Virus record (IMG/VR): IMGVR_UViG_3300020044_008128
Location: 1 to 58,349 of that record
Direction: 5' to 3' (one strand)
DNA length: 58,349 nt
From: a virus
Lineage: Duplodnaviria; Caudoviricetes
A program made the position numbers and the translations under genes. Of this stretch, positions 26,601 through 46,000 are shown one piece after another; position 1 is the first letter of the stretch; every line of letters starts with the position of its first letter. A model generated the notes under the pieces. The model was not told the origin of the DNA. It saw nothing but the letters and a program-made list of their open reading frames with translations, and searched no databases.

Positions 26601-29600
26601 TCAGTTAGCTGTGGAGCCTCCGTGGGCTGCGCCGACTCCGTGGCGGGCGCAACTTCCGTGGCTGGCGCAACTTCCGTGGCTGGCTTCTCCGCAGCAGGTA
26701 TCTCCATCTTGCCTTGATCCTGCTCGGCTTTTCCTGCGCGGGTAGCCGCACCAAGTTCAGCAAGCAAGTCGGGAGCCTGTGGCTTTGCTGTTTCCCCTTT
26801 GTTCTTGGGGCGAGTGGATTGGGTTCCCTCAAGGAGACTTTCAAGCCCAGCTTGTTTCTTGGGAGTCGCTACCTTGGTTACATAGAAAGGCTCTTCCAAA
26901 CTGGCCTTCTGCTCCCCAAAGGTAGGGCTGGTTAAGACGACTCCGACAGGGGTTCCATCCGCCTCGTCATAGGTGATTTCTGTGACAGTAAATTCTTCGC
27001 CCAAGATGGTGTATTTTTTACCAACAACAACCGCAGAGGAAACGATACGCTCTTTATCCTCGGCGGGAGTAGTGACAGCTTCCTCGAAAGCCAAGGTCTG
27101 TTTCTCCTGCTCGTCCATCACTGCTTGTTGTTGGTCTGCAATGCTTCCGGCTTTGCGCTCCTTGCTGGCTTTGACCATCGCCTCAATCAAGGCATCCGCA
27201 TTTGGTGCGGAGATGAAGTTCGCCTCAAACGCTAAATTGGCAACAACATCAATCGTGTTGGAGTCAAAGGGCATCGTGTCCGAAACCGTCCAAAGTTTGG
27301 CTTTCTCCCCTTCATCAAGCTCAACATCCCGTAAAGGGTCGCGTTCTCCGCCAACGGATTTCCCAGCTTTTTTCTCAGCAGCTTTGAACTTTGCACTCGG
27401 CACAACCATGTCCGAATCAGCCACAAAATTGAGGATGTCGGGCTGCTGCGTATTGGGGTTGTCTGAGAAGCGGGAAGTTTTGCGGTAGCTTTTTGGCTTC
27501 TCGACGGGGGCTTCCTTTTCCTTCCGAACAGAAATTGTCTCCCCCTTTTTGAGAGTGTTAGCAATCTTGTTGGCAAACACCTTACCAAACTTGTCCGCTA
27601 GGGAGCCAATGGCAAACTCATTTTGCAGAGCTTCCAAGGAGAGATAACTGGCTTTGTAAACTCGCCCATCACTTTCACGGTGCTGCCATTCAACATTCCC
27701 ATTGGGGAGCATCTTTGCCGTGTACTCTTCGGGGATAGCCATTTTACCCTTGGGGACGACAGCCTTCTTAGCCTCGGGCGCGGGGGCTACTTCCGCCACC
27801 ACTGGAGCGGTAGCAGGTGTCGCCAAATCCTTGGCGATCTTTTTGGCGGCATTCTTTGCTGGGGTGAGGTTCCCAAATTCCTGAACAAACTCTCCCGCCG
27901 CATTATAGATGGCATAGAAGTTCTTGGCTTTGGGGTTAGCACGGCTTGGTTCCTGCTTGATCACGCCCACTTGGGCGCGCCCAACCATGATCTTTTGATC
28001 TTGCGCTGTTCCAGCAGGGCGAGGCTTGGTATCTGCAACAATTTTGACTTCCTCAGAAGGAGCCACCTCTGTAACCCGAACAGTCGGAGCCTGTGCGGGC
28101 CTAGCCATGACGGTAGGCTTGGCGGCAACTCTGGTGGTAGTGACGGCTTTCCTTTCGGGAGCTACTGTTTCCTCAAATGGTTGTCCTTCGATAGGTTGGG
28201 CTTCTATCGTTTCGCTAGAACTTGGCGTAACGCGACCACTACTGGGGGCCGAGTCTTGGGCTGTGGGGGCGGGTATGCTGCTTGGAAGATCACTTTGAAT
28301 TTTGGCATTTGGGGCGGGGAGCGGGGTTTCATCCTCGTATGGTTGCCCTTCGATAGGTGGGGCTTCTACTACATCATTGGCGGCACGCACAGCTTCTGCT
28401 TTACGCACTTGCTCCTCATAGGCGCGAATAGCCGCCGCTTTTGCCTCTTGGAATTTGTCTTCTTCAGTAGGCACATAGAACTCCTGCCCTTCAATCGGAG
28501 GAGCTTCCGCTGGAGTAGCAGCCGCTTCCACGGCAGTCTGCACCAAAGCATTCTGAACCTGCGGGGCATTTGCATCTGCTAAAGCTGCGGCAGTTGCAGC
28601 AATCTCTTCCGCCTTGGCTTTCTGGGCTTTGACGTATTGATCTTTGGCAAGACCAACCAAGCCAGCACCGCCACCCATGAGAGCAGAACCAAAGAGTGTA
28701 GCGGGAGCAATCTCCTCAAACCCTTTAGCGATGCCAGCGGCTCCGGCATACGGGTTGGCAACTTCATCTGGATTCTTGCCTGCCAGAATAGCTTCCATCT
28801 TGGCTTGATCCCAGCCTTGCCCACCGACCTGAGTAGCGGTTTCGCCTGCGAGTTCTACGCCAACGTCGGCGGCAACCAAACCTGCTTTGGTGAGCGCTCG
28901 TTTTGCCAAAGTGGTGGCGACTTCCTTGCCAATATCTTTGAAGAGGAGCTTGCCAACGCCCATTGTGAACACGTTGCCAATAGCTTCTGGGCCTGCTTCC
29001 CACAGAGCAGTATTCTTGGCAATCGGGAGAAGTTGGGCGTGGAGAGCTTTCTCTTCGTCTTTGTCCAGAGGGCGACCCTTTTCCTGAACGGACTTTTCGT
29101 TTGCCAGCGCGAAGGCATCGTCCAAGAAGGAAGCCCCTGCCATGCGGTAGGCAGCGGCTCCAGAAGAAGCCAAGCCTCCAATAATACCTACGGCGGTGCC
29201 AATAGCGGAGCCAGCGACTGCGCCGGGGGCCACGCCAACACCACCAGCGGGAGCCGTAGCTGCTCCGCCAATAGCGGCACCAATAGGCAAGCCTGCGGCT
29301 TCGCCAGCAGCCCCACCAAGAGCAGCGGCTCCCATCGCAACACCGGAGAAACCAGAACTGTTGCTGAACTCGCGTCCAGCACTTCCAACTGAAGTCGCCA
29401 ATCCTTGAGCTTCGCGTTGAGCTTGATCCGCTTGAACGGCTTCGTCAGCCGCCTTCTTCTCCGCCATAGCATCTCGGTAGCCTTGGGAACGCTCGCTGGG
29501 CATAGCCAAGCCTTCCTTGAGTTGGTAGGCAGCAGCCTTGACATTGGTGGGCAGGTTACTGGCAATGGTGCCAAGAGCGTTGAGGGTATCTCCAAAACCA

Positions 29601-29890
29601 AAGAAGGGACGGTCTGCCTTCTCCTTAGCTTGGGCATCAACTTCCTGTTGAGCTTTCTGCTGGGCATACGTCTTGACGTAATCACCCATATTTTCAGGCA
29701 TCGGAGCACCTGCGAAGAACTTGTGCTTGGCATCAGCAATAGCTTCAACTGCGAGCTTTTCTTCAGGCGTTTTAGCCTGCTCGATCACCTGCTGTGACCA
29801 CCCCGACAACACCTTGGACTTCTGCTCTGGAGCTAGCTCCTGAAAGGTAGGGTTCGACTCGATTTCATTCCAAAGGGGAGGAGTAGCCAT
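17603..29890 (-). CDS. Giant (4095 aa) polyvalent internal virion/ejection protein with SF2 (strawberry-notch/DarB-like) helicase and zincin-like domain
   Basis: SSAGTGKT, LIFDEAH, TATP, GGTGLSLHD, QVAGRTVR; ILHELMHH; Gly/Ala hydrophobic N-terminal segments; long helical C-terminus. Confidence 0.8.
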   Translation of the reverse strand: MATPPLWNEIESNPTFQELAPEQKSKVLSGWSQQVIEQAKTPEEKLAVEAIADAKHKFFAGAPMPENMGDYVKTYAQQKAQQEVDAQAKEKADRPFFGFGDTLNALGTIASNLPTNVKAAAYQLKEGLAMPSERSQGYRDAMAEKKAADEAVQADQAQREAQGLATSVGSAGREFSNSSGFSGVAMGAAALGGAAGEAAGLPIGAAIGGAATAPAGGVGVAPGAVAGSAIGTAVGIIGGLASSGAAAYRMAGASFLDDAFALANEKSVQEKGRPLDKDEEKALHAQLLPIAKNTALWEAGPEAIGNVFTMGVGKLLFKDIGKEVATTLAKRALTKAGLVAADVGVELAGETATQVGGQGWDQAKMEAILAGKNPDEVANPYAGAAGIAKGFEEIAPATLFGSALMGGGAGLVGLAKDQYVKAQKAKAEEIAATAAALADANAPQVQNALVQTAVEAAATPAEAPPIEGQEFYVPTEEDKFQEAKAAAIRAYEEQVRKAEAVRAANDVVEAPPIEGQPYEDETPLPAPNAKIQSDLPSSIPAPTAQDSAPSSGRVTPSSSETIEAQPIEGQPFEETVAPERKAVTTTRVAAKPTVMARPAQAPTVRVTEVAPSEEVKIVADTKPRPAGTAQDQKIMVGRAQVGVIKQEPSRANPKAKNFYAIYNAAGEFVQEFGNLTPAKNAAKKIAKDLATPATAPVVAEVAPAPEAKKAVVPKGKMAIPEEYTAKMLPNGNVEWQHRESDGRVYKASYLSLEALQNEFAIGSLADKFGKVFANKIANTLKKGETISVRKEKEAPVEKPKSYRKTSRFSDNPNTQQPDILNFVADSDMVVPSAKFKAAEKKAGKSVGGERDPLRDVELDEGEKAKLWTVSDTMPFDSNTIDVVANLAFEANFISAPNADALIEAMVKASKERKAGSIADQQQAVMDEQEKQTLAFEEAVTTPAEDKERIVSSAVVVGKKYTILGEEFTVTEITYDEADGTPVGVVLTSPTFGEQKASLEEPFYVTKVATPKKQAGLESLLEGTQSTRPKNKGETAKPQAPDLLAELGAATRAGKAEQDQGKMEIPAAEKPATEVAPATEVAPATESAQPTEAPQLTERQKSRLARKEVTQEKLDDLAKRRQAAADKFRKSLGRTSMAGLDSEQFAAAFELAKISAETGAVKFTDFAQDVRDQFPDLWDNVKDYLSGVWNQLALNNEELEEAPLPREARKLIAQMEATEVAPATTSVKPTKVAQATEVAAATKSAQPTEVTPTIEEEPVTEPINGKLSIETLKEKMGFGKQRRKTVAEVFGLKPEYLLKTIFEPAALANADAETTEQINKLRDLISQTEEYKAYKKEQAMSESEVASERKKFEEKLPDALTNINAAGFVATTLPDGSIAIATKGEAATERGKAALVSNGFSYDNQKGWVSKTYARVVELAHNISDEAYGTAVGNEAVVASKINKIRKEQRKKLADQENQSEPPAGKTARSYMTTKVFEFFKSALNRALGQEAVKGGKVSIPSQALEEQQWDSMLISKAQADGKPMYLLASSAGTGKTFVMGSALANIRSRNPEGRIVFVTRSQELIAQVKEDFANFPEVQNIEFMTYSNLDDSTKYVPSDSDVLIFDEAHEVRYGLSDTSSRSKKAAEWMSKAKFTLLTTATPYESIEQMEYLKATGVFDSLREVRGLFDDGWYNFAAIAGAKVLQRDGKPSSLDFDKMTPADKKAGQLYAREFLRKNGMFSQRSARIPDGMSEATFQGVKGSAEWSVLADEIKTAFDKVEKPSSNDKGFYTNILKRILEASKANAAIDLARKEAAEGRQVVIFVETKSESDRNLVEIVEKWDAAQAEYLAAKAVNRDAQFVVPEGVPNLPGVIEMFRNLIEQGVGSINFESAQDKFKKAFGDQVVFYTGDEAGKVGQDSLSRWENPDSPNPAPIMVATMARGGTGLSLHDTSEGGKYPRTQIMLNLPWRASEVEQVAGRTVRYGMTSVARGFWLFANNLFNEAGLASRVGERLNSMNMLVRGEVTIAADKIVNQDWVANLSTGKVVEIERIPDTPPVGGLAAQVGNTNSLNLSTQPPAGKIVGGITEQNAKNGLALIAKLIPMAGRMVRLATSAELLADESLTPAERASVRSGAQGYYSNGKVVVIIDQVKQTIFHKNADIAAASTILHELMHHGTAVIRNSTDKLLHASWLSMISEYVTEAQIERLVKVSGYRAYANWRTDMDVKEKAMEEVFVRQIEGLFVRKGSLSFVEKTKLQKFLRWVKSFINSALGLPQSAQIPDEHLEDMGQIFIKAINAAKFTERAQGGSQSVAPVDKETSKRLSDAQQLGVDYPVPEGLPENSTEAYEAHWAKFTGDKDNKATKEQSQAMNQVPFAVGEYGLPIFLQTGNRGKPNNTIYEENGSIHRRFMLGDTVASVMIGKDNSVHFSVADSIGESVGKGAFKTMNALMPYLEQLLRIHSRKNPGVTYTFVANSPRKSALFSRYARRSGLELVGEHSFRVMEKPVAAVSDIRESTPDLGSLPDAPTNLLSPYNDEEKASLKAYKEANPELGLKFSQILGLEGSIADVQSIAASESLAYEYLRLDSDKGRPVVGKDDVDRLLGVATQLTARGSTFGLTYQQGKPDAATGVLQMVLTQAGLEMARNGDSRLLEMLRQNWNGIVMGAFLTHSSAGRLLQSRSAYKMEILDTMYKMEQAAKAAAIKHLQEEGVEDAENTLRSVEELINNAELDAKALEDLKKAVSGIKVGAQDGLAERITEALKFTGGEIKRKWSEYTKEILRLGKLAKLEKDMEEKKASSSAAQSLSDDLGLEEPLEVFASIEDVRKAMDDSRKKIAKLGKELGKALGAKQPAPQVTSPTPNIPTASEGEVEDLEDVEDVKEEENQNEATKAAEAVLANLKAFLEKKYSKEKKAPTIYAIIKKAVDANIANTPKHTVFKYFADDLAKELEPFDIEDSVKEELIATAWSTSSRYAEKEAEEITDRFLKKKEVQDNLKTEDTVKLKALVKEFLRNKKKLEEQDFVDAMTPLVEALKVPAKIAGELARATYGEHLVRKEAALQRMLDRTKESLLAGSRKTLVSQIKAANPADINDAAWQDAALRKVLTLSGILPSELDRAMSEFSDADKALIFGTTVAKMNQAASESINKTHERLIKNYEEYLKQPTNAAKPTPSETLRKLVRNLVAIDITRPLFVTQAAAFGATEAQANRLYDLAMTERSLRKGEETSTTKMGVLVDYITSDASLQNDPKLRLEAIKSWLKRNGYTSQAADNSAAAIDAAFDEHVVAAQVKAMEKFEIKISSRKQAELKKKAENTNVNVAEKQVEKLQKLIRMGLGKDRLDPTKSFAKAAGYENLQPSDYKAFGELDLKITQAKADQRVHDYAIAVKELYELLARRKLEMGFLTRLAISYNNSALSGLGTLAINIIAPMGALMTRVGIDMGAAIARGDIQAVKDIFKVLQDTASIIRQEVKFSITGGANTNDWSRVIMNATTLQQPMVKALQKINDPKTSAFDKLKARMIVVQSYTDVTRRVLMATDHVWFSMMDNYFRKTQALEVMRRAGVQDQNKIQQVRAILFSGTNVYGPRLAYELGVLHRYENAIEGFRGLPDAKAKILDLVTAPLDANLTVEARQFEEDIRGDIRRASQGNLLSQATAVKQALGAARLQRTLSNIRIRDNVARDINSAIKGILPDVQFPEFVEKESAYEMGVHRGEDSPNLDVINNIVNAIQGAGNNVIKKHPIVGRMLLGYFGIPSNLLNRAMWFTPYGLIRYAIAAKARKDLLVGPNPFYQQSMATNEQIRQRLVEAIVGTTAISILMALKALSDDEDDDLFNVTLTGPTNKTELDAWKKAGHRQGSIEMRVGDKIVSLNVMRGPLEPLKIALLMVGAMDDMRLNRKENDGEFAQYFSEYMSAVLSGWSKQAAFFGAKSTIGATLAVDPDSKVLGTALYKLNPIIPFSGLISSVEKLMTGGDRFRGREGSLYLNLPIARSLLTERAVNALGDPQGLNPSSAWTEGNERAWYAGFPLMVAGTPTGNDKKVYGFILDRGIAPGLPQRTALENKNGVMSDSNWQDYVAVRGQFIKKAMIRDLARLEKMDDDSASKALGNIGTEATAYAKKQLRYK
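26148..26685. repeat. Direct repeats encoding TEVAPA/SAQPTE units within giant gene
   Basis: TCCGTGGGCTGCGCCGACT at 26148-26166 and 26619-26637; tandem 18-bp units GGCGCAACTTCCGTGGCT near 26647-26685. Confidence 0.8.
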
Positions 29891-34197: not shown

Positions 34198-34379
34198 GGG
34201 GTAACGGCAACACGGGTTCCAACAACAAATGTGAGTCCGGAAAGGACAAGGGTATCCTCATTGTCCGCCTGATAAGATACATCATCCAAAGCAGTAGTCA
34301 GCATGGTGTCCAATTCCGCCCACCAAGCCCCTGCTTGTTGTTCCGGAGTCATGGCATCCCACGTTTCTTGAGGAATCAT
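34194..34379 (-). CDS. Small hypothetical protein
   Basis: ATGA overlaps at both ends. Confidence 0.55.
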   Translation of the reverse strand: MIPQETWDAMTPEQQAGAWWAELDTMLTTALDDVSYQADNEDTLVLSGLTFVVGTRVAVTP

Positions 34380-34573
34380 TCGGAGGAAGAAATCAGCGAT
34401 TCTTGGCAGTTGTGAACAGTAGCCCCTTCTCCGGAGATGAAGCGGTAGAGATCAAACCGCTGATCGATGATCTCCTTTGTTCGATCTCTTGTAGCCATGA
34501 ACTGTGCTTCATCGCCATTCTCCCCTTGGAGAGTGGCAACACGGTCTTCGGCTTCGGGATCGACATTGGGCAT
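34376..34573 (-). CDS. Small hypothetical protein
   Basis: ATGA overlap; follows tail protein gene. Confidence 0.55.
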   Translation of the reverse strand: MPNVDPEAEDRVATLQGENGDEAQFMATRDRTKEIIDQRFDLYRFISGEGATVHNCQESLISSSE

Positions 34574-34579
34574 GGTGGG

Positions 34580-37500
34580 TTAAGCTGTGAATGCGACAAC
34601 GGCTCCAATATACGGCCCTGTGCTCGTAGTGCCAGTTGTTGGGATGGAAGTCACGGTATTGACTGCATTGTAGATGACTGCGCGGAAGTGGTAGCTCTGA
34701 CCAACGGTGAGTCCCGTGATCGTTTTCGTTGCGGCTTGTGGGGCGAACCCCGCCAAACTTGCAGTAGTCGATGTGAGCCACGTCGAGGATGATACCAACT
34801 TGTATTGGAAGTAAGCTGTCGAATCTATGTGATTCGGAGTAAATGTTCCAGCCAAGGTAACAGACCCGCCAGAGATCGCACTAGCGGCTCCGGTTGTAGC
34901 GGTTGGAACAGCTACAGCGGCAGCGTTTACTTGGACGTTGTAAGTGCTCTTGGTGCCGGGGTTATTCGACGTGACGTAGAGGTTCACATAGCGATAGCCC
35001 TTGACTCCGATAGCAGGAGCAAATGCGAGGGTGAGCGTGTCCGAGTTGCTGGCAGAAATGCTTGAAGGTGGGTAGCTTGTGATCGAGAAGTCCCCCGTCC
35101 CGCCCGACAGAGTGGCGACAATGCTTGAGAGTGTTGCTGTCCCTGCGTTGACCAGTTTCACAGAGATAGGGAGAGTTGCCCCGCCAATCGCTGCGACGTA
35201 GCCAGTCTGGTCTTCATCAGCAATCGTCGTGCCATCTGGGACTTGAAGCAGAAGGTCAGGAGCAAGCACCCCAGAGAAGGAAAGTTGATCTTCCTGAATG
35301 GATACTGAGCCACTCAAATAACCGCACTGGATGTAAGCTCTTGCTCTCAGAATACCTGTTGTGGGTAGAGAGATTCCCGTCAGACTCCAACCTCCCGTGA
35401 TGCGAGTTCCTTGCCCCAAACGCGACCATGTGGTGCCCCCGTCTTGGCTAAGGTCGAACACGGTGATCTGCGTTTCAGGTAACGTCCCTCCACGGAGCCA
35501 CTGAACTGCGGTGTTGCTGACAATCGACAAAGCCGTGGAAGCTGTGCCGTTGATGAGCTTGGCTGCCTTTTGAGACCCGCCTCCAGCCAGCGAGAAATAC
35601 CCGCCAATCAGCAACGATCCGTCTTCTTGAACGCACAGAGATTGAACCATACCTGTCGCTGCCGCCGAAAAAGTCGAATCGTTTGATCCTGTAGTTGTAA
35701 TCCTTTCTACTTTGGATGTGCTGACAGGGTAGCTGTTTGCTGATCCAAGAAGTAGTGTGCCGTCGGTCTGCGGGGATAAAGCCTCGGCGGAAGAAGCAAC
35801 TAGTGTGAACGTCCCGTCTAAAGCTCCTGCTGTCGTCAGTCGGATGACTCCGCGCTTATCGACTCCTGCTATATAATTTGATCCGCTAAATAAAACTCGA
35901 CCAGATGCGTCTAAATTAGCCATACCTCCGCCTGAAGTCACATTAGCCGCAAAAGTAGCGTCAATCGAGCCGTCTGAATTGAGACGAGCTATACCACGCT
36001 GGGAAGAACCAGCGATGCCTGAGAACGATCCACTTACAAGTATTTTTCCATCTGCTTGTGGGAGAATTGAATAAATGCCGCCAGAGCAGGTGCAGGAAAA
36101 AGCATTGATCGAGGCAACTCCGGCAGAGGAGAAGTCAATCTTGGCTATGCGCTGCCTAGTTACCGTAGTCCCAAGCGTCAGCGTTGTGAAGTTTCCTCCT
36201 ATCAAAACTGAACCGTTAGGTAGAAGAGCCATACAGCTAATGGAATCATTGGCACTTAAAGTAAATGTTCCATCCAGTGAGCCGTCTGAATTAATTCTAC
36301 GGATATGCTGAGTAGTAAAGTTGCCTCCAATCAATGCCTTCCCGTCTGGTAGTTGCGCCATGCAGTACACGGTGCCGTTCACTCCCGCACCTGATTGAGC
36401 TTGTACATTCCCCAAAGAATCGACAAAGGCATAACGATTGCGAGTTTGGGTTCCAACAGATGTGAAACCTCCGCCAAGCCCTATTATTCCGTTTGTGCGT
36501 TGGGTTATAGTCGTTACCGTTTCATTCGGAACAGGTTGCCACGACAAGTCTTGTGAACCCGGACCCGGTGTGGCTGCTCCAGACAACGCCACTGTGAAGC
36601 TTCCTTCGTCCGCATCATTGGAGTGAATCGTCATCGTGGTCGTCTTTGTCCCAGAAGATGTTGGCGTCAATTTTACGTCGAAAGTGACGAATTGACTTGG
36701 TAGCACTGGATCAATAGGTTGAGTGACAACGGTATATTGGCCTGTTGGAGAGAAGGTTACGTGCGTTCCAGTAAATGATAGGTTGGCTAGTCCAATATTT
36801 CGCACTGTCACGGTCTTTATCGACGAAGACCCAACTTGAGTGCTCGGGAAGTAGATCGTTCCTGATCCAGAAGTCAGGATAGCTCCGTCGATTTCGACTT
36901 GAATTTCAGGGTCAATCGGTGCGGAGACTGTCACTTGCTGGATGCCTTCGCTATGAGAGTCAGAAGGAAAAGCCGTTGCGCGGATATTGTTCGTAGAGCC
37001 AGACAAAGAAGATGTCGGGATAATCTGCCATCCTGAAGGTGTGCGTGAAATAGTTCCCGCTAGGGTTGCGTAGCCAGAACCCGTGTCCAATTCAAACTCG
37101 ACTCGCTGCGTCTCTTCACTGGTTCCTGTCCTGTCCCATTTGATGAGATTAGCGTTTACGGCATACAGGTTGTTAGCTGCTGTGCCGTTGTAAAGCCTAG
37201 CAACACGGTTACGGGTCGTGCTGCCAACTGAGGTGAAAGAGCCTCCTGCTAGGATTTTGCCGTCCGTTTGGAGGGCAAGAGCATTCACGCCCCCGTTGGC
37301 ATTTGGATTGAAGGCAGGCTCCAAAGAAAAGTCAGGAAGAAGCCGCGCAAGGCGATTCCGTGTCGTGCCGCTGACGCTAGTGAAGTCTCCTCCGAAAATG
37401 ACGCTACCTTCTGCCTGAAGAGCCAACGTGTTGACTGCTGCTGATGGTGTAGGAACTCCGGCTACCAAGGTTCCGTTGGCTTCGATGACGGCAAGTTTTG

Positions 37501-37663
37501 GGCGAACTGCCCCGCTAATAAAGCCAAACTGCCCTGCTGCGACCACTTCTCCAGAAGGTAGAACTGTCACGGCATACCCCGTATTGTCGAGTCCAGCCCC
37601 CACGGCGAAAGATGTGTCGGTAGTTCCGTCAGAGTTGAGAATGGCGATGCGGTCTGGAATCAT
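34580..37663 (-). CDS. Virion/receptor-binding protein: half delta-60 propeller, Ig-like (choice-of-anchor-D/ASH) domains, full 7-blade delta-60 propeller, FN3-like end
   Basis: Repeats ALALQ.DGKIL.GG.F...R.R.ARL; VRNIGLANL, SNDADEGSF, GLTVGQSYHFRA. Confidence 0.8.
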   Translation of the reverse strand: MIPDRIAILNSDGTTDTSFAVGAGLDNTGYAVTVLPSGEVVAAGQFGFISGAVRPKLAVIEANGTLVAGVPTPSAAVNTLALQAEGSVIFGGDFTSVSGTTRNRLARLLPDFSLEPAFNPNANGGVNALALQTDGKILAGGSFTSVGSTTRNRVARLYNGTAANNLYAVNANLIKWDRTGTSEETQRVEFELDTGSGYATLAGTISRTPSGWQIIPTSSLSGSTNNIRATAFPSDSHSEGIQQVTVSAPIDPEIQVEIDGAILTSGSGTIYFPSTQVGSSSIKTVTVRNIGLANLSFTGTHVTFSPTGQYTVVTQPIDPVLPSQFVTFDVKLTPTSSGTKTTTMTIHSNDADEGSFTVALSGAATPGPGSQDLSWQPVPNETVTTITQRTNGIIGLGGGFTSVGTQTRNRYAFVDSLGNVQAQSGAGVNGTVYCMAQLPDGKALIGGNFTTQHIRRINSDGSLDGTFTLSANDSISCMALLPNGSVLIGGNFTTLTLGTTVTRQRIAKIDFSSAGVASINAFSCTCSGGIYSILPQADGKILVSGSFSGIAGSSQRGIARLNSDGSIDATFAANVTSGGGMANLDASGRVLFSGSNYIAGVDKRGVIRLTTAGALDGTFTLVASSAEALSPQTDGTLLLGSANSYPVSTSKVERITTTGSNDSTFSAAATGMVQSLCVQEDGSLLIGGYFSLAGGGSQKAAKLINGTASTALSIVSNTAVQWLRGGTLPETQITVFDLSQDGGTTWSRLGQGTRITGGWSLTGISLPTTGILRARAYIQCGYLSGSVSIQEDQLSFSGVLAPDLLLQVPDGTTIADEDQTGYVAAIGGATLPISVKLVNAGTATLSSIVATLSGGTGDFSITSYPPSSISASNSDTLTLAFAPAIGVKGYRYVNLYVTSNNPGTKSTYNVQVNAAAVAVPTATTGAASAISGGSVTLAGTFTPNHIDSTAYFQYKLVSSSTWLTSTTASLAGFAPQAATKTITGLTVGQSYHFRAVIYNAVNTVTSIPTTGTTSTGPYIGAVVAFTA

Positions 37664-38490
37664 GGCGAGAGTATAACCTCCTGAATCAATTCGTCTAGCT
37701 TACTTTGGGGCATGGTAGTAAGCCAATGCTGGGTCATTTGTTGCACCATCGGATGCTCAAGCGACTTGTAAAGGTGCATCCATCCTCGGTAGTAGTTCTG
37801 GATTCTAGCACCATCGCCCCCTGAATAATTCCGCTTCGGCCAACAAAAACGGTGCATCCAGCCCATCATCGGATGGCACAGAACCTTGCCGCCTTGCTTT
37901 CGGACCTTCTCTGCGAAGAACCACTCCTCTGCTCCGAAACCTTGAAAGTCAGGTAGATTAGTCGGAAAGTGCTCTCTCCAGAAAGAGAAGCAGCCCATCC
38001 CTTGCATGGAAATTTCAAACGGCTCAGCCCCTTTGACTCCGGCTTCGTCCGTTCCCCAAGTGCCGAAGTCCTGTCCTCGCCATACGGGGTTCATGTGCGT
38101 CGAACGCGACTTCAAGCAGTTGTACACAAGTGGACCTGTGAGTTGATTCTTCGACCTTTGGTTTGCTTGCCACCACTCCAAAAGGTGGTCGATAAACCCT
38201 GTTTCCAAGAGAACGTGACAATCAAGCCCGAGCACAACATCACCTGTTGCGTGCCTGAAAGCGTCATATTTGACGAAGCTGCTGTGCCTATCTTCGACAT
38301 GAATCCACCGACTATTCGGGACTGCGGTAAGGAAGTGCTTTGTCGCTTCCAAATGGTCGCCTTTGGGGCTATTGTCGAGCACTAGAAACTCCGTATCATC
38401 AGGTAGTTTGTGGTGCATACGGAGCGACTGGATGGTGAAGAACACACCATCATAGTCATCGTAGCAAGCCATTGAGATGGTGAGCTTCAT
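37660..38490 (-). CDS. Glycosyltransferase family 2-like
   Basis: LTISMACYDD, FLVLDNSP, ATGDVVLGLDCHVLL, GMGCF, FQGFGAEEW, GGKVLC. Confidence 0.85.
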   Translation of the reverse strand: MKLTISMACYDDYDGVFFTIQSLRMHHKLPDDTEFLVLDNSPKGDHLEATKHFLTAVPNSRWIHVEDRHSSFVKYDAFRHATGDVVLGLDCHVLLETGFIDHLLEWWQANQRSKNQLTGPLVYNCLKSRSTHMNPVWRGQDFGTWGTDEAGVKGAEPFEISMQGMGCFSFWREHFPTNLPDFQGFGAEEWFFAEKVRKQGGKVLCHPMMGWMHRFCWPKRNYSGGDGARIQNYYRGWMHLYKSLEHPMVQQMTQHWLTTMPQSKLDELIQEVILSP

Positions 38491-39758
38491 GGCAGGACGA
38501 GTGTCGTATTATACCCTGATTCAACAACAATATACCCTAACTTTTGGTAGGTGGTTAGTGTGTGCTCCAGTTTTTCAGAAGGCGTGTTTGAGTTAGACTC
38601 AAAGAATATCTTTTTTGGTAGCCACGACTTATCCCGTGAATTGATAACAAAATCGCGAGCAAAACCATCTAGAATAACAGTATCGTGGCCCTCTGTATCA
38701 ATTTTCAAGTAATCGACGCTGCCAATATCGAATCTTTCATACAACCTGTCCAAAGTGGTCATAGGAACTTGCTCCCGCTGAAGTCGCTCAATCGGGAACT
38801 GCTTTGAGTTCAAGTATCCTTGAATGATCGGGTGGATGTCATCAATCCGCGTGCATCCAGCCAGCCACGTCGGAAGCTCATACTTCAGAATGTCCTCACG
38901 CGACACAAAGATAGCTTCACATACTCCCTCTCTATCTGAAACTGCCTCTACCAGTTTTATCACGTTCGTGGGGCTTGGCAGAACATCCAAGTATCTCCCC
39001 ACTGGCTCAACGGATAGTCCTCTAGCTGTTTGTGGTGCAGAGGCTATTTGAGTGTCAAAATCGCAAGTTCCAATTTCGATGAAGTCAAAATGTTGTTTTT
39101 CTTTCGGCCATTGCTTAAAAGGTAGAAGACCTGGTGTAACTCCTGAAGCATTCAGAAGCTCACAGCCAAGCTTTGCTGCGTACTCCTCGGCTTGCTTGAA
39201 TAGCCTGACCAGTTCTTGCTCTCCAAGTCGAAGAGGATCAGGAGTACCGTGCCCATAAAAGAAATCCGGCTTAAAATCTTTGAAGAAGTCTTCCCCCCAT
39301 TTAATTGCATCTACAGGATTGGCTCCCCCGAAAAGATCGTGAGGCGTAGGTTGTTTGGCTTCCCTCCATGCTTGAGTTTTGTCTTTATTATAGTCGTGGT
39401 CAAAACCTAGATGAAGAATTTGTTTTGGTTTGAATGCATCTAGTATCCAGAAAAGCCCTTGGAAGTAGAGCGTATATCCTATGTGGTACTCTGGTCGCTC
39501 AAACTGCATACCCAACTGCTCGCATACACGCCTTGGCGAGTCCTTGTAATCGTAATAGTTGATTATCTTTGCACCGTGATCTGAAGGAATGAACCCAGAT
39601 GAAGGAAAATCCCCTGAATGTATCCAGTAATCTAAGGTGTTTTTGTCAAAAACCCTCCAAGCGTTATTGATAGCACAAGTCGCGCTTACCGTTGAAGCCA
39701 AACTAGCCGCCTTTTTTGCGGATATACCGCTGCCTACATAAAGCACTGTATCAAGCAT
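38487..39758 (-). CDS. Fusion: Maf/DUF115 (GT29-like) domain + FkbM methyltransferase
   Basis: N-term VLYVGSG..CAINNAW..DYW..D..KQILHLGFD; C-term FIEIGTCDFDT, SVEP, DYLKIDTEGHD, IFFE. Confidence 0.75.
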   Translation of the reverse strand: MLDTVLYVGSGISAKKAASLASTVSATCAINNAWRVFDKNTLDYWIHSGDFPSSGFIPSDHGAKIINYYDYKDSPRRVCEQLGMQFERPEYHIGYTLYFQGLFWILDAFKPKQILHLGFDHDYNKDKTQAWREAKQPTPHDLFGGANPVDAIKWGEDFFKDFKPDFFYGHGTPDPLRLGEQELVRLFKQAEEYAAKLGCELLNASGVTPGLLPFKQWPKEKQHFDFIEIGTCDFDTQIASAPQTARGLSVEPVGRYLDVLPSPTNVIKLVEAVSDREGVCEAIFVSREDILKYELPTWLAGCTRIDDIHPIIQGYLNSKQFPIERLQREQVPMTTLDRLYERFDIGSVDYLKIDTEGHDTVILDGFARDFVINSRDKSWLPKKIFFESNSNTPSEKLEHTLTTYQKLGYIVVESGYNTTLVLP

Positions 39759-39761
39759 ATT

Positions 39762-42700
39762 TTATGGGGGCGCTGTCGTCGTGGTCGTAGTTGGCGGAAC
39801 CGTCGTTGTCGTTGTCGTAGTCGTCGTTGTCGGCGGAGCAGTTGTCGTGGTCGTTGTAGTCGTGGTCGGTGGGACCGTCGTCGTTGTAGTTGTAGTGGTC
39901 GGCGGAACCGTCGTTGTCGTGGTTGTCGTTGTAGGAGGAGCAGTCGTTGTAGTTGTCGTTGTAGGAGGAGCAGTCGTCGTAGTAGTCGTAGTAGTCGGAG
40001 GAGCCGTTGTTGTGGTCGTAGTGGTCGTGTTCCCTGTATCATACCAGTTCCCTACAACCGCTACTCTCCCGTCCTCAAGGAGCGTAACTCCATAAACACC
40101 CGCTGGATTTGAAACAGTGTCGATCTCGCTAGTGAATCCTGTATCAAGCAAACCAGAAGAGTCGATTCTTGCGAGCCAAGATTTAGCTCCTCCACCGATG
40201 TTAGCAAAGTCGCCCCCAACAATAATCTTGCCGTCGCTTTGAAGAGCTAGACAACGCACAAAATTATCCGCGCTAGGATCGAATCCAGCGTCAATCGTTC
40301 CGTCACTGTTTAGACGAGCGATATTAGCTCTACTCGTAGAAGCTATATAACCGAAACTTCCGCCGACAACGATCTTTCCGTCGGGTTGAACAAGAGCGCA
40401 CAAAAGGAATCCGTTCGCATTCGGATTAAAACCAGTGTCGAGAGCACCTGTCGAAGCGTCAACTCGGGCAATATAGTTGCGTGTCGTTGCTCCAATTTGA
40501 GTGAAATCTCCAACAAGAATAGCTTTCCCATCTGATTGGTGGGCAATTCCGTAAATAGTTCCGTTGACGTTTGCGTTCCAATCCGGATCGACAGCCCCCG
40601 GAGCGGTTGGGTTCTGTGAAACTCCGGTCAGACTGATGGTAAAGGGGCTTTCGTCGGCATCTGTGCTGGTGATGGACAGTGTAGCCGTGCGAGTGCTGGA
40701 GGATGTCTCCTCTCCTACAGGGTCAAAAGTTACTGTAAATGAAGTAGATACTCCACTTGCTAGCTCCGTCACGGATAGGGCCGAGGGTATATAGTCAGAG
40801 GCATTCGCCCCGCCGACGACTACGGCAAGCTCACGCAACGGAATATCATCGTTTCCTACGTTCGTTAGTATAAATGTATTTTCTGAAGGGGTATCAGTGA
40901 CCGTTCCAAAATTTATCGTATTTGCCCCATTGGTAAGAATAAGATTGGTTGGCATTTGAACCAACTCAACTTGGATATCAGCAGCTACCCCCGTCCCTGC
41001 GACGTTAATGACATAGGTCGTCAAAGCGTTGCTTGTGATCGTAATAGTAGCGTTTTTAAAGCCCGGCGATGTTGGCTTAAAATATACACTCCAATCGGCG
41101 GAGTTTGATGGGGCAATAGAAGCTGGAAATGCCTGAAAGGTGAACATGTCCGCTTCACCCGCAATTACCGAGGTTATAGTCGCAGAGAATCCTGATAATG
41201 ACTCTAACCCGATATTGTTCAGTTTAAGGGCTAGCGTGGACTGACTATTGACACTAACAGCAGGAGCGGTGCTGGCATCAGTGTATGGAGAACTGCTAGG
41301 TATCAAGGCTTCGCTACCTTTATTCACCACAGATAGTTCCGGCTGCGGGTCAGTGAAAGCGATGCAGAGATTACTTATGACTGAAGCAACTGGCGGAACG
41401 GTAACAGGTGGGACACAGACAAGTTTGGCGTAGTAGGTGACTCCGCGAGTAGCTCCAGTAATCACCGTAGAAGTGATGGTCGGTGGAGTATTGACGGTCA
41501 AATTTTGGGTATGCGTCCCGATGGGCAAAGCATTGTAGTTCCCCAAAAAGCCGCCGCCGAAATTTGGGTCGGTAGAGACGGACAGTTTCAGCGTCCCTGT
41601 CACTACGTTTGCCGCTACTGTTCCAGACAAAGTAAACCCCGTGGCTGTTTCTGCCGTTAAGCTCAGGTTGATGTCGGTTGGATTCCCTGCGGTGCTCGGA
41701 GACTTGACGTAAAACATTCGAGTCAAGTATCCGCCTTGATCGGGAGCTACCGTGACACGGGACAATACAGTAGCGGGCCATCTTGTCGGATTTGTAGCCG
41801 GATAACTCTGAGAGAACTGGGTGTCCCAAAGGCTGTAGCGATCATGCAAACATGCTGGGATATTGATTTTCAAGTCGGCTCCGTTGAAGACGATCTCGGA
41901 TCGCAACATTGGCGTCTCCTGCGGAATTAGTGGCGCAGACGTTGCCCAATGCGCCACATTGAACGTGGCATCCGAGTTGGGTACGGCGCATTTGTAGAAA
42001 GCTCCACCGTAGGTCACATAATCTCCGACGATATAACTGTGGCTGGCAATCCAAGGAGATGTCTGCCAGTTAGGATCACCACCGAAAATCGGTTTGGCCA
42101 AAGTCCACCGTTCTACCAAGGTATAGTCACAGGGGCCATCAAACGCATCGGCAAGCCAGACGGGCGACCAAGAGAAAGAAGAAATCGGGGAATAGATATT
42201 CCTTGGGTCACTGTGGATTGCCTGAATGTTGATATAATTTAGCACTCGCGGCCAAGTGTAGTTATCTCGGTAGTACAAGACTCGAGTGGAGACTCCATTA
42301 ACCGCTTTTCCGGCCAATCCTGCGGCCTTCTGCGTGGTTTTTACCGACCACAGGGAGTTCTGCACCGAAACATTACTGTAGGTTCCATCAGCGGCGACTC
42401 CGGAGGCCTGTGTCCCCGCTGCAACTTTTTGAGTTTTGGTTTCTTGGATCGTGTTGGTATCCAGATCGACGGCATACGAAGTGTTGACGGTGCTCGTCTT
42501 CTCCCGAGTCACTTGGACGGAAACATATAGACTGTCCAACTTCGGTTCCCCGATTCGCTGCTCTTGAGTAGCAGTGATCTCATAGCCTGTCGTATTGATA
42601 GGCGGATTCGGCGGAGCAGGGTAGGTCGTAGAGGGGTTTGCCGGAAGCGCACGGTAGTCCGCACGGGGGATGATGAACGTCTGGTTGATAGCAGGCCAAG

Positions 42701-42989
42701 GACCAGAATCGCTGATCTCCCAGTTGTACAGGTTTTGGGAAGCTTGGTCAGCTACGTACCACCGCTGATAATTGCCTTTCTCGTCCGGCTGCGTCTGAAG
42801 GCAGAACTTATGGTGGGGCCAAGACTTGAGCTTGGATATGGTATCGTGCGGAGTCCCATAAACTGGAATCGAGTCATTCGGAGACTGAACTACGTTGAAG
42901 TTCTCCACCACAAACACATCGGTGCTCGTAGGGTTGAAGGGAATCCGCTGCGAGGGCAGCAGTTTTGAGGCGGAGTTCGCAGTAGCCAT
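39762..42989 (-). CDS. Virion/tail protein with CBM-like insert, Ig-like domains, half delta-60 propeller and C-terminal mucin-like Thr/Pro tail
   Basis: WIASHSYIVGDYVTYGGAFYKC; LTNVGND, STDADESPF; 3.5 delta-60 repeats; (T6-10[AV]PP)x8. Confidence 0.8.
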   Translation of the reverse strand: MATANSASKLLPSQRIPFNPTSTDVFVVENFNVVQSPNDSIPVYGTPHDTISKLKSWPHHKFCLQTQPDEKGNYQRWYVADQASQNLYNWEISDSGPWPAINQTFIIPRADYRALPANPSTTYPAPPNPPINTTGYEITATQEQRIGEPKLDSLYVSVQVTREKTSTVNTSYAVDLDTNTIQETKTQKVAAGTQASGVAADGTYSNVSVQNSLWSVKTTQKAAGLAGKAVNGVSTRVLYYRDNYTWPRVLNYINIQAIHSDPRNIYSPISSFSWSPVWLADAFDGPCDYTLVERWTLAKPIFGGDPNWQTSPWIASHSYIVGDYVTYGGAFYKCAVPNSDATFNVAHWATSAPLIPQETPMLRSEIVFNGADLKINIPACLHDRYSLWDTQFSQSYPATNPTRWPATVLSRVTVAPDQGGYLTRMFYVKSPSTAGNPTDINLSLTAETATGFTLSGTVAANVVTGTLKLSVSTDPNFGGGFLGNYNALPIGTHTQNLTVNTPPTITSTVITGATRGVTYYAKLVCVPPVTVPPVASVISNLCIAFTDPQPELSVVNKGSEALIPSSSPYTDASTAPAVSVNSQSTLALKLNNIGLESLSGFSATITSVIAGEADMFTFQAFPASIAPSNSADWSVYFKPTSPGFKNATITITSNALTTYVINVAGTGVAADIQVELVQMPTNLILTNGANTINFGTVTDTPSENTFILTNVGNDDIPLRELAVVVGGANASDYIPSALSVTELASGVSTSFTVTFDPVGEETSSSTRTATLSITSTDADESPFTISLTGVSQNPTAPGAVDPDWNANVNGTIYGIAHQSDGKAILVGDFTQIGATTRNYIARVDASTGALDTGFNPNANGFLLCALVQPDGKIVVGGSFGYIASTSRANIARLNSDGTIDAGFDPSADNFVRCLALQSDGKIIVGGDFANIGGGAKSWLARIDSSGLLDTGFTSEIDTVSNPAGVYGVTLLEDGRVAVVGNWYDTGNTTTTTTTTAPPTTTTTTTTAPPTTTTTTTAPPTTTTTTTTVPPTTTTTTTTVPPTTTTTTTTTAPPTTTTTTTTTTVPPTTTTTTAPP
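39765..40029 (-). repeat. Poly-Thr/Pro coding repeat (T6-10-[A/V]-PP)x8
   Basis: Degenerate ACN codon runs punctuated by Ala/Val-Pro-Pro. Confidence 0.95.
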
Positions 42990-42998
42990 GTTAAAAAT

Positions 42999-43027
42999 AC
43001 ACTACTCTTTTTTCAACAGACAATCAA
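42999..43027 (-). promoter_or_regulatory. Putative leaderless promoter (TTGATT-N17-TAGTGT)
   Basis: -10 ends 9 nt before ATG 42989. Confidence 0.4.
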
Positions 43028-43566
43028 GGCTTGTAGTATAACTGGAACAACACTTGTGCCTTCAAACTGTCCGCGTCCGTATGGTTGGAAAAAGTGTAGT
43101 CGATCAAGGATCGGGAAATTCCTGCTTCTGACTGGTGGTCCATCTGGATAGAGTTTGGGCGAGTGATCTCAACCACAACACCTCCCATATCTCGAATCAA
43201 CTCTGCTTCGTTGTCAAAACGAACATCGTCAATGACAACTCCACGAATCACACCGCAAAGAACATCCCCCATCAAGGTTTCTAATCGGGCTTTGCCAGCC
43301 CTGATCCAAATATCCTGACCGACCATGTTTCGACCCCAATCGGTCCCAATGGACTGATAAACTTCACGTAGGGTTTTCCCGCATAATTCTTCGGGTCGAG
43401 CATCTTTATTGGTGACGTGCGTGAGGCATCGAACCATCGCTTTGAGTGGGTCGGCAAAGGACATGCGATCATACCCGATGGACAGGAACCCCTGAGCAGC
43501 GGTGGTTTTTCCAACTTGAGCGATGCCCGTGAAGGCTACAATAGTGGGCTTAGAATTTGTCGTCAT
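43024..43566 (-). CDS. Deoxynucleoside monophosphate kinase
   Basis: FTGIAQVGKTT, SFADPLK, REVYQSIGTDWGR, IDDVRFDNE, HQSEAG. Confidence 0.92.
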   Translation of the reverse strand: MTTNSKPTIVAFTGIAQVGKTTAAQGFLSIGYDRMSFADPLKAMVRCLTHVTNKDARPEELCGKTLREVYQSIGTDWGRNMVGQDIWIRAGKARLETLMGDVLCGVIRGVVIDDVRFDNEAELIRDMGGVVVEITRPNSIQMDHQSEAGISRSLIDYTFSNHTDADSLKAQVLFQLYYKP

Positions 43567-44418: not shown

Positions 44419-45030
44419 CTAGAAGACATCTTTACCAGAAGCTTTGCGAGCACGCATTTCTGCGAGCATTTCACCTTCCTTCATTCCTTTGGCCCAAGCT
44501 GGGCGGAGTTGGAAATGAGGTTGGTCTTGGATGGACGACCAATCTCCGCCCCACTCAAAACCGAGGTTTTTGCCAAGTTGCCCAACAGTCTTGTAGGCGG
44601 GGGACTCATCGATGTAGGCACCATGCACAAACACTCCAACATCGAAAGCCACTCCAAAGTTGTGGTTGGAATAGCCTCCGCGAGCATTCGTCACGATTTT
44701 GCCCGAAGCGGTTCGGCCTTGAGCGTACAACGAGTTCTGCTCGTCATAAGTCCGCAGACCCGAGATCAGCTTGATCGTGATACCGCTTGTGGCAGCTTTA
44801 CGCACTAGCTCACGGGCTTTTTCTCGCAGATTAGGGTGGAGAGTCGAAATGACCTTTTCGCTTCGCTCATCGACGGCTCCCCCCTGTGGTAGGACTACGG
44901 TGATCGGTTCTTCCGAAACGTTAGCCGGAAGGGCTTTGTCGAGTGCTGCCAGCGTCTTATCGCCCGGTTGTCCATCGGGGGTAACCCCCAAGCGTGTTTG
45001 AACTGTCTTGGTGAAATCGAGGGGACTCAT
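44419..45030 (-). CDS. Endolysin, M15 L-Ala-D-Glu peptidase with N-terminal peptidoglycan-binding motif
   Basis: VQTRLGVTPDGQPGDKT; GLRTYDEQNSLYAQGRT, SNHNFGVAFD, WGGDW..DQPHFQ. Confidence 0.92.
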   Translation of the reverse strand: MSPLDFTKTVQTRLGVTPDGQPGDKTLAALDKALPANVSEEPITVVLPQGGAVDERSEKVISTLHPNLREKARELVRKAATSGITIKLISGLRTYDEQNSLYAQGRTASGKIVTNARGGYSNHNFGVAFDVGVFVHGAYIDESPAYKTVGQLGKNLGFEWGGDWSSIQDQPHFQLRPAWAKGMKEGEMLAEMRARKASGKDVF

Positions 45031-45031
45031 A

Positions 45032-46000
45032 TCAATAAACTCTACCATTGATGATTTTGTGGTTGGTGACCTCGTAATTGCCGTCTTCCTGCGTGTCAAC
45101 CATGACGAAGCCATGATTCCAGCGGTTCACAATCGCATAGTCAGGACTCAGATCGCAAAGGCACCCTGTTGACCAACAAGAGGACAGCTTCTTGTTCAGA
45201 CCTGTGCTCTCGGTATGCTCGCTCGTTCGGTGCCAATGTCCGCAAATCAGCGATTCCTGTACACGCATCCAGATTCCTCTGGCTGGGTTCACCGGAGACG
45301 ACATACCCTGCGGCAATTCGTGTCCGTGGTAAATGGGCAGATCACCGAGGCGAATGAGCGTCAACGATGGAACAAGTTCAATATTGAGTTCATCAAACTT
45401 GAGGAGAACTGGCAACTCAAAATCACTGACTCCAAGAAGAACAGGAGCGTTCTTTACAAGGAACATTTCCATCCGCGCTTCGTGATTACCGATCTTGTAG
45501 AGGATTCGTGCATGGGGAAACTGCTTGCGTAGGTAGAAGAGGAACTGGCGGATTGCGTCAAGTTCGTCAGCCAAGGAACGGCGAGGGTCTTTGTCGTGTC
45601 GGCTCACCCCGTAGAAATCACCAATGTCTCCATTGAGGATGATGATATCTGGCTTCTTTTTCTTCCCGTAAGCTATGGCTGCTGCCAAGGCTACTTCGTC
45701 ATGGTAAGGGATATGGATGTCGGACAGAATCAACGTCCGCAAAGCCCCACTAAGGACTGTTGGTTCACGCTTAACCGAGTGAGTCTTCGGGATAATGTTC
45801 TTTTGCCATCCGAGCGGTCTGAATCCACTCTTATCTGCTACGTGCTTATTGGCTCCACGTATGGTCCTAACAACGTTTCGAGCTTCGTCCACGGTCTTGA
45901 AGACCTTTGGCATCTCTTTGTTCATTACCCGCGCTATCGTTCGATTTTCCGTGTCAGGAAAGCGAGCAATAAACTCGCGGGCAATTTGGGTCTTATTCAT
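45032..46000 (-). CDS. Calcineurin-like metallophosphoesterase
   Basis: SDIH, NGD..D, GNHE, YHGH, GHWH motifs. Confidence 0.9.
   Translation of the reverse strand: MNKTQIAREFIARFPDTENRTIARVMNKEMPKVFKTVDEARNVVRTIRGANKHVADKSGFRPLGWQKNIIPKTHSVKREPTVLSGALRTLILSDIHIPYHDEVALAAAIAYGKKKKPDIIILNGDIGDFYGVSRHDKDPRRSLADELDAIRQFLFYLRKQFPHARILYKIGNHEARMEMFLVKNAPVLLGVSDFELPVLLKFDELNIELVPSLTLIRLGDLPIYHGHELPQGMSSPVNPARGIWMRVQESLICGHWHRTSEHTESTGLNKKLSSCWSTGCLCDLSPDYAIVNRWNHGFVMVDTQEDGNYEVTNHKIINGRVY

Follow-up and report, generated by a model that had tools for sequence, protein, structure and literature searches.

The closest described case to the locus treated here is the 'gene in pieces' nrdA of Aeromonas phage Aeh1, which is split into nrdA-a and nrdA-b by the homing endonuclease gene mobE (Crona et al. 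2011, PMC3045599). The present locus belongs to an uncultured freshwater phage represented by the IMG/VR record IMGVR_UViG_3300020044_008128, all 58,349 bp of which (completeness rating 90%) were analysed and are referred to as the window. Two of its genes, g1 (P0001) and g2 (P0002), each encode half of a delta-60 beta-propeller, and between them lie two further genes, P0003 and P0004, here called the cassette. The reading considered probable is that g1 and g2 are two pieces of a surface-type protein of ~2000 amino acids (aa) whose propeller ring re-forms from the two chains, that the Thr/Pro tail at the end of g1 is O-glycosylated, and that the allele is exchanged by recombination. The anatomy of the locus and its population history are well supported.

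Rings completed by a second polypeptide are known from the eukaryotic coat and pore proteins Sec13 and Seh1, whose open six-blade propeller receives a single extra blade from a partner, and in bacteria the serine-rich repeat adhesins and the flagellins of Maf-dependent glycosylation are Ser/Thr-rich glycoproteins with dedicated transferases. Rings can be built from fragments smaller than a propeller (PMC6805158, with the Tawfik-group tachylectin work cited there), and hetero-oligomeric seven-blade WD40 propellers were not obtainable from fragments (Afanasieva et al. 2019, PMC6805158). Glycosylation of virions by phage enzymes is described for the mycobacteriophages Che8, Corndog and Myrna (Freeman et al. 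2023, via PMC12363180 and PMC12582341), and the Ser/Thr-rich disordered regions of streptococci offer a further glycoprotein comparison (PMC12041528). No account of a split delta-60 propeller, or of a phage propeller gene housing a glycosylation cassette, came up in a literature search that left most subscription journals and supplements outside its reach.

The divided propeller and its uncut counterparts

Both genes are recognised by the delta-60 families, Pfam DUF5122 (PF17164) matching g1 at E 7.4e-31 (106.6 bits) and g2 at E 1.1e-49 (166.8 bits) against a cut-off of 27, and NCBIfam delta-60 (TIGR02608) giving 80.6 and 116.5 bits, respectively, above its cut-off of 76.5 bits. All blades were counted with a hidden Markov model (HMM) built from three clean g1 blades. 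In g1 this model finds three full blades (HMM positions 1-45) at aa 809-854, 859-903 and 908-952 and a final partial one at aa 965-989, which covers positions 4-28 only; g2 opens with a partial blade at aa 6-19, covering positions 32-45, and goes on with three blades at aa 26-69, 77-108 and 123-157. The partial matches at the end of g1 and the start of g2 are complementary parts of one blade, so that the propeller is divided into 3.5 + 3.5 blades. The last of the three g2 blades is without its final strand, as would be expected if the N-terminal APGAVDPDW strand of g1 closed the ring.

Further along g2 a second propeller is intact, with seven HMM matches at aa 380-698, and propeller 1 of an uncut homologue, P0014, likewise gives seven matches (aa 738-1086). 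Judged by sequence, each ring would have seven blades, whether as 3.5 + 3.5 from g1 and g2 or as a continuous seven in propeller 2, in P0014 and in another uncut form, P0160. The flanks of the two propellers correspond, with APGAVDPDW (g1 796-804) and PGPGSQDLSW (g2 366-375) ahead of the blades and ARLYNGTA (g2 155-162) and AKLINGTA (g2 701-708) behind them. The half-blade complementarity, the intact seven-repeat propeller and the equivalent flanks (PGAVD/PGSQD and LYNGTA/LINGTA) had been proposed in an original prediction made from the letters of the window, and the blade model and these coordinates bear them out. Its four open reading frames (ORFs), all on the minus strand, were found as described, and direct reading of the junctions in the order g1-P0003-P0004-g2 reproduced the tight coupling that it had noted: TAA-AAT-ATG, a 3-nt gap, followed by two ATGA overlaps.

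Relatives were collected by scans with g1, with g2 and with an alignment of the g1 N-terminal domain (A1), and both genes are visible on 13 related contigs (L003-L009, L013, L014, L019, L021, L022 and L023). The cut falls at the identical residue in all 13: within the first half of blade 4 the g1 blades end just past ...VG-x-W/F, and g2 starts as M(S)-I/L-P/Y-x-x-I/V-A-x-L-N. Two more contigs, L015 and L016, have the same g1 end and then stop. Since the N-terminal domain of L021 is only 39% identical to that of g1, the cut persists across deep divergence. Of 30 clusters of g2 orthologues in the protein collection, 29 start at that strand, the exception beginning within the propeller and coming from a 3-kb contig. 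The same break point in every related split locus excludes chance.

Conservation on this scale also bears on the suspicion of an assembly artefact at the Thr repeat, or of a recently broken gene in decay. A tail made of tandem repeats is a classic site of misassembly, but the architecture recurs in the 13 independently assembled contigs, in several collections and in many protein clusters, while each ORF runs uninterrupted through more than 1000 codons and nonsynonymous divergence (dN) is far below synonymous divergence (dS). Misassembly and recent pseudogenisation are dismissed on the strength of this conserved architecture, and the probability left to them is close to nil. Public sequencing offered two DNA runs (0.05 of sampled words, apparently one data set) and no RNA run; contigs of relatives were short, joints were driven by repeats, and nothing spanned the junctions.

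The N-terminal domain of g1 is found in company other than the half-propeller. Among 27 non-self relatives of this domain, 10 have the half-blade plus a Ser/Thr/Pro tail, one has the half-blade with no tail (P0128), in one the tail is made of Cys-rich repeats (P0143), 11 have an NHL propeller rather than a delta-60 one, and four are shorter or different. The occurrence of NHL and delta-60 propellers on the same N-terminal domain indicates module swapping in the family. The NHL group (P0129-P0133, P0142, P0144, P0145, P0148, P0149 and P0151; ~1300-1410 aa) shares both the N-terminal domain and the Ig-like region. A profile scan of the genome contig collection with alignment A1 found no relative.

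Colinear uncut homologues, as looked for in genes in pieces, exist. The original prediction had proposed a check for uninterrupted relatives, and forms of 1928-2050 aa that run on across the junction were found in P0014, P0018, L018, P0160, P0179 and P0180. P0014 (1954 aa) and P0018 (1964 aa), two of the 120 longer-protein matches listed, cover 99% of g1. P0014 aligns with g1 aa 1-983 and then continues in g2 from aa 9, with ~10 residues (914-923) where the split forms have tail, cassette and start codon. L018 encodes an uncut protein of 1958 aa among the same gene neighbours as the split loci L008 and L009. When a profile of the N-terminal domain was run against 1.84 billion cluster representatives, 388 clusters matched; among the best 150 of these, the delta-60-bearing ones of at least 850 aa comprise six of split type and three uncut (P0160, P0179 and P0180), and P0160 (2050 aa) has seven continuous blades at aa 868-1199. 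Scans of viral contigs with P0014 and P0018 found no uncut locus.

An insert placed exactly within a domain recalls introns and inteins, and one chain might be restored from the split genes by an intron, an intein, ribosomal hopping or DNA rearrangement. This is very improbable, however, in view of what the insert contains: enzyme genes on the same strand, with coupled starts and stops and with a content that varies among relatives. Rfam gave no match at E<=1 on either strand of window 34000-43500, and Pfam no intein (Hint) domain in g1, g2, P0003 or P0004. Moreover, g1 has a true stop after its tail, and g2 has its own ATG with GGAGG 14 nt upstream.

Split and uncut alleles occur in closely similar backgrounds. 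Between L018 (uncut) and L009 (split) the protein is 95-100% identical over most of 1958 residues and 26-55% identical near the junction, at roughly aa 800-1040, and the same pattern is seen between P0014 and L008 and between P0018 and both L019 and L022. The DNA flanks of L018 and L009 are 90-98% identical and enclose an unalignable core of 667 nt in L018 and 2374 nt in L009. In the trees, all unrooted, the g1 segments were represented by 18 rows, blades 4b-7 by 16 and the C-terminal part by 15; left out were L001, L002, L010 and L025 (same contigs as other rows), L005 (sequence identical to L004) and the truncated L011, L012, L017, L020 and L024. Blades 2-4a and blades 4b-7 each give a tree in which the uncut forms, three in number, lie on one side of a long branch with 100/100 support. 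The flank trees, of the N-terminal domain and of the C-terminal part, require three changes for the uncut state, and holding the uncut forms together in them is rejected (approximately unbiased, AU, p 1.6e-5 and 8e-4, respectively). The conflict between core and flank trees indicates that the junction block has its own history and has moved between backbones.

Read from these alignments and trees, split and uncut are an old two-allele polymorphism of the phage clade, the split allele being the commoner, rather than the outcome of a recent insertion. The original prediction of an ancestral ~2000-aa protein cut by an insertion thus stands as regards the uncut form, and gives way to recombining old alleles as regards a recent insertion into this genome. 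Unrooted trees give no direction for the first change, and the uncut state is taken as ancestral on two other grounds: a domain has to be contiguous before it can be divided, and several deep clusters contain uncut forms. In the exchange proposed here, the block of blades 2-5 together with tail and cassette (~2.4 kb; the uncut counterpart measures 0.67 kb) would be swapped between near-identical genomes by homologous recombination.

Both halves of the divided ring are maintained by selection and have diverged little. dS was saturated in all 8 pairs tested, and dN/dS was 0.04-0.29 where measurable; in 8/8 pairs each half had a lower dN (0.14-0.40) than propeller 2, which is intact (0.26-0.73). 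No other part of the ring is as conserved as the opening 18 residues of g2, with a mean pairwise identity of 0.82 against 0.47-0.67 for the other blades; this fits a strand that would have to dock on another chain. One inter-chain pair of positions co-varies, Y/L going with I/V in 10/10 loci and N with R in 3/3; the pair represents at most two independent lineages and is a hint only.

In layout, the protein runs from an N-terminal anchor-like domain through Ig-like domains, propeller 1, an Ig-like domain and propeller 2 to a C-terminal domain. The cut lies in the mid-blade-4 hairpin of propeller 1, where g1 continues into the Thr/Pro tail and g2 resumes blade 4. The four genes would be translated as one coupled unit, and the two chains would re-form a seven-bladed ring non-covalently, blade 4 coming from both and blade 7 being closed by the g1 strand, so that the ring would serve as the joint holding g2 on g1. 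Alternatively, the halves do not reassemble, the half-propeller of g1 being a stump or self-paired and the 3.5 blades of g2 being put to some other use. In vitro, propeller fragments favour homo- over hetero-oligomers (PMC6805158), in keeping with this alternative; but a homodimer of g1 would have no outer half for blade 4 and one of g2 no inner half, and the cut residue is fixed in relatives down to 39% identity. As the orphan strand that opens g2 is also the most conserved piece and both halves diverge less than propeller 2, a failure to reassemble is judged improbable, and trans-assembly is preferred.

The tail and the cassette enzymes

The tail of g1 (aa 984-1075) consists of 65 Thr and 16 Pro among its 92 residues, and its DNA of imperfect 33-nt tandem repeats. 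Tails are 78-150 aa long in most of the relatives' loci, and their repeats differ with the neighbouring enzymes. A 276-aa family, to which P0004 belongs, is encoded directly upstream of g2 in 9/13 split loci, and in these the tails have Thr runs in 9/9 cases, with APP/VPP or EEP spacers; in the loci that lack this family, Ser/Thr repeats alternating with Pro (VSPTPD, TPTP or PSPSPPPP) are found in 4/4. Some members of the family end otherwise. In L022 (12737-13759) a ~140-aa Thr/Pro tail leads into a domain of ~190 aa to which Pfam has no match, which indicates that the cut site can also display a folded module. The g1 relative P0128 (966 aa) ends a few residues past the half-blade and has no Ser/Thr/Pro tail, and in P0143 and P0154 a Cys-containing motif of ~25 aa, repeated at the C terminus, replaces the plain tail. 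The Cys motif has 469 matching stretches in the genome contig collection, mostly in metagenome-assembled genomes of Flavobacteriales, and these swamped the P0143 scan.

The C-terminal half of P0003 matches the methyltransferase family FkbM (PF05050) with 36.9 bits against a cut-off of 22.7 (E 5e-9), and TIGR01444 with 30.1 bits, below its cut-off of 37.7. For aa 1-230 there was no Pfam match even at E<=10, and a match to PF01973 (Maf/DUF115, MptE-like) was not found. Sub-threshold Atlas structure rows for the N-terminal part include MptE-like clusters at a template-modelling (TM) score of 0.59 and GT29 clusters at 0.52, and there is a weak local match (E 0.022) to the GT29-like protein of L004; the domain possibly has a sialyltransferase/MptE-like fold, which is given as a lead only. 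A PDB sequence search returned no match for P0003, whose homologue in L013 is 87% identical. P0004 matches the glycosyltransferase family GT2 (PF00535) marginally, at 24.2 bits against 23.3. The enzyme names of the original prediction therefore fared unevenly: FkbM holds, GT2 holds by a small excess of bits, and 'Maf/DUF115' is unconfirmed, with no Pfam match.

Cassette content turns over among relatives. The window and L013 share the 423-aa FkbM-containing protein and a GT2-like enzyme of the 276-aa family, and that family is accompanied by a 240-aa GT2 in L006, L007 and L019, with an additional methyltransferase in L006, and by a methyltransferase in L008, L009 and L014. GT8 and a methyltransferase/GT29-like fusion make up the cassette of L003 and L004, and the fusion alone that of L022; L023 has a GT9-like and a Capsule_synth-like protein, and L021 a single 316-aa GT2 whose resemblance to the 276-aa family is distant (E 4e-7). 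Every cassette examined contains glycosyltransferase-type genes, and the phages accordingly encode glycosyltransferases of their own, with matches among relatives to GT2, GT8, GT9-like, GT29-like and Capsule_synth families. When 26 cassette proteins were compared with 21.2 kb of the uncut locus L018, none had a match there, which upholds the earlier proposal that the insert brings with it the Thr tail and glycosyltransferase-type enzymes. The pattern fits a unit of acceptor plus enzymes in which tail repeat type and enzyme set would be replaced together. The tail would leave the ring at the cut and be O-glycosylated by the cassette enzymes, its sugars perhaps being methylated.

One cassette type holds a candidate motor for such exchange. 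Inside the L004 cassette (15074-15550, minus strand), on the opposite strand and directly upstream of g2, lies a gene for an HNH_3 endonuclease (E 7e-12) with a weak helix-turn-helix match, and the ~610-nt gap before g2 seen in L004 also occurs in L003, L005 and L025. By analogy with T4-like phages and their free-standing homing endonucleases (PMC3045599), it is plausible that a free-standing HNH endonuclease is one motor of cassette spread, and a homing endonuclease of this kind may assist exchange in this cassette type.

Several points weigh against the favoured reading. The failure of Afanasieva et al. (PMC6805158) to obtain hetero-oligomeric rings means that trans-assembly is not automatic, and the case for it here is one of sequence logic. 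Glycosylation of the tail is argued from gene neighbourhood; P0004 is a marginal GT2 whose sole PDB match is ppGalNAc-T12 at E 0.41, and as tail and enzymes are physically linked, their co-variation is no independent test of glycosylation. The tail may be only a linker, in light of the extra domain of L022, the Cys-rich repeats of P0143 and P0154 and the tail-less P0128. The window's own cassette comprises only P0003 and P0004, with no endonuclease by ORF list or Pfam. For location in the virion, PHROGs gives phrog_5490, function unknown, and nothing further.

The cassette might instead be a passenger at a recombination hotspot, its enzymes acting on something else, such as the host envelope or other phage proteins, and the tail being an unmodified flexible spacer or linker: the L022 tail is a linker to a further domain, P0128 does without a tail, the enzyme families are generic, and tail-enzyme co-variation is confounded by linkage. 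This is nevertheless thought unlikely. Tail and enzymes are gained, lost and replaced as a block, with 0/26 cassette proteins matching L018, and tail type follows enzyme family (9/9 and 4/4). Ser/Thr/Pro repeats beside dedicated transferases are, furthermore, the usual layout of bacterial and phage O-glycoproteins, and the mycobacteriophages provide a case in phages (PMC12363180). A glycosylated tail thus stays the preferred reading.

The original prediction had also called the protein a virion protein, for which PHROGs, Pfam and PDB sequence searches gave no direct support. Candidate capsid and portal genes had no PDB match, and the neighbouring genes are unnamed by PHROGs and Pfam. A virion role is suggested by the build of the protein, in which a conserved N-terminal domain is combined with exchangeable Ig-like, delta-60 or NHL modules.

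A bolder proposal, advanced tentatively and at distinctly lower confidence than the reading above, is that of a portable glyco-tail display cassette aimed at one propeller hairpin. The divided ring would then be a two-chain snap joint bearing a glycosylated stalk or another displayed domain. Its split and uncut alleles, with the many variants of enzymes and tail, would be kept by balancing or diversifying selection, either for recognising the host or for evading its surface defences, and would spread by recombination, driven in part by a homing endonuclease.

Source record and gene layout

The domains of g1 and g2 and the genes around them are listed in Table 1. PDB sequence searches gave no match for g1 aa 1-450 or for a profile of the g2 half-propeller, and g1 aa 1-450 drew no PDB or PHROG name and no Atlas match. 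Within this domain, aa 313-339 (window ~41970..42050, minus strand) form a weak CBM_5_12-like stretch (E 7e-4, below cut-off), situated in a ~40-residue segment that is missing from uncut P0014 and kept in some relatives only.

Table 1. Positions of the split propeller genes, their domains, the cassette and nearby genes in the window
Feature	Position	Strand	Basis
g1 (P0001, 1075 aa), first half of split protein	39762..42989	-	ORF
g1 aa 1-450, family-specific N-terminal domain, no named family	41640..42989	-	388 clusters at E<=1e-3
g1 aa 451-795, Ig-like choice-of-anchor-D region	40605..41639	-	NF012200, 49 bits vs 45, 2 stretches
g1 aa 796-983, propeller 1 from its closing ('velcro') strand through blades 1-3 to mid-blade 4	40041..40604	-	Blade HMM, alignment
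g1 aa 984-1075, Thr/Pro tail	39765..40040	-	Composition, tandem repeats
P0003 (423 aa), cassette gene	38487..39758	-	ORF
P0004 (276 aa), cassette gene	37660..38490	-	ORF
g2 (P0002, 1027 aa), second half of split protein	34580..37663	-	ORF
g2 aa 1-162, second half of blade 4 and blades 5-7, propeller 1	37178..37663	-	Blade HMM, alignment
g2 aa 163-365, Ig-like choice-of-anchor-D / ASH region	36569..37177	-	Pfam/NCBIfam
g2 aa 366-707, intact seven-blade delta-60 propeller 2	35543..36568	-	7 HMM matches
g2 aa 708-1027, C-terminal region, no family match	34583..35542	-	Pfam; kept in relatives
4095-aa ORF	17603..29890	-	ResIII/DEAD helicase core, aa ~1519-1647; Strawberry-notch-type helicase C domain, aa ~1922-2006; remainder with no family match
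dNMP kinase	43024..43566		
Peptidase_M15_4/VanY-type protein, probably endolysin	44419..45114	-	
Metallophosphoesterase	45032..46000		

Apart from the split locus, the window encodes the large subunit of a terminase (phrog_2, E 6.7e-11), and beside the M15 peptidase gene it has those of a dNMP kinase and a metallophosphoesterase. A long ORF comparable to that of 4095 aa lies downstream of the same genes in relatives. Promoter-like and terminator-like sites in the region were no more frequent than in shuffled sequence. Only TAA-AAT separates g1 from P0003 (window 39756..39767, minus strand), the two being in the same frame, and by ORF coordinates L013 has the identical in-frame 3-nt spacing between g1 and its enzyme gene; read-through of the stop would join the tail to the P0003 enzyme, and the arrangement is probably coincidence.

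Related contigs of 61-69 kb were found in viral and metagenome collections. Among 50,697 deposited phage records the window has no close relative, a tblastn search with g2 returning only two weak propeller matches, with 31% identity over 15% of the query. Judged only by the source names attached to relatives, the host possibly belongs to the Verrucomicrobiota.

Comparison with known systems

The locus is a hot spot for the joint replacement of tail repeats and sugar-modifying enzymes, and its cut and uncut alleles in near-identical genomes allow a direct comparison of how well a repeat fold withstands a chain break within a blade. If the bolder proposal of a display cassette is correct, this would be the first natural heterodimeric beta-propeller to have arisen by gene fission in mid-blade, and also a new route by which phages diversify their surface chemistry. 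With a tail glycosylated as proposed, self-glycosylation by phages would extend beyond the mycobacteriophages to uncultured freshwater phages, and the joint and the site of the tail suggest a position for cargo display in protein engineering.

Bacterial Ser/Thr glycoproteins share with this locus a repetitive acceptor encoded beside variable sets of glycosyltransferases; unlike the present case they are cellular, often extracytoplasmic, and have no link to a split domain. The mycobacteriophages are alike in that phage glycosyltransferases modify the phage's own structural proteins, an activity that for the window is read from the genes. Their substrates are capsid and tail-tube subunits, whereas here the presumed acceptor is a repeat tail emerging from a split propeller, the enzymes lie inside the split gene, and the enzyme sets are highly variable.

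As to the ring itself, Sec13 with Nup145C, Sec31 or Sec16, and Seh1 with Nup85, resemble the proposed assembly in that a ring is made from two polypeptides and serves as a joint (PMC2922654). Unlike those genes, which are not products of recent fission, the present pair would make a ring of 3.5 + 3.5 with the chain interrupted in mid-blade, and uncut alleles still circulate. The rings obtained from fragments (PMC6805158) were engineered homo-oligomers of whole blades, in contrast to the natural heterodimer proposed here.

With Aeh1 nrdA the locus shares a phage gene cut within a folded domain by a mobile insert, an uncut form preserved in relatives, and new terminal tails on the pieces that arose with the insertion (PMC3045599). 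In nrdA, function is kept by non-covalent assembly with no splicing (PMC3045599), to which the assembly proposed here would be analogous. The free-standing HNH endonuclease of one cassette type extends the likeness, the window's own cassette being without one. The two systems differ in what is cut and in what is inserted: here the cut lies in a beta-propeller blade of a surface-type protein and not in an enzyme, and the insert consists of glycosylation enzymes and a Ser/Thr/Pro tail of ~90-150 aa, with a cassette content that turns over among relatives.

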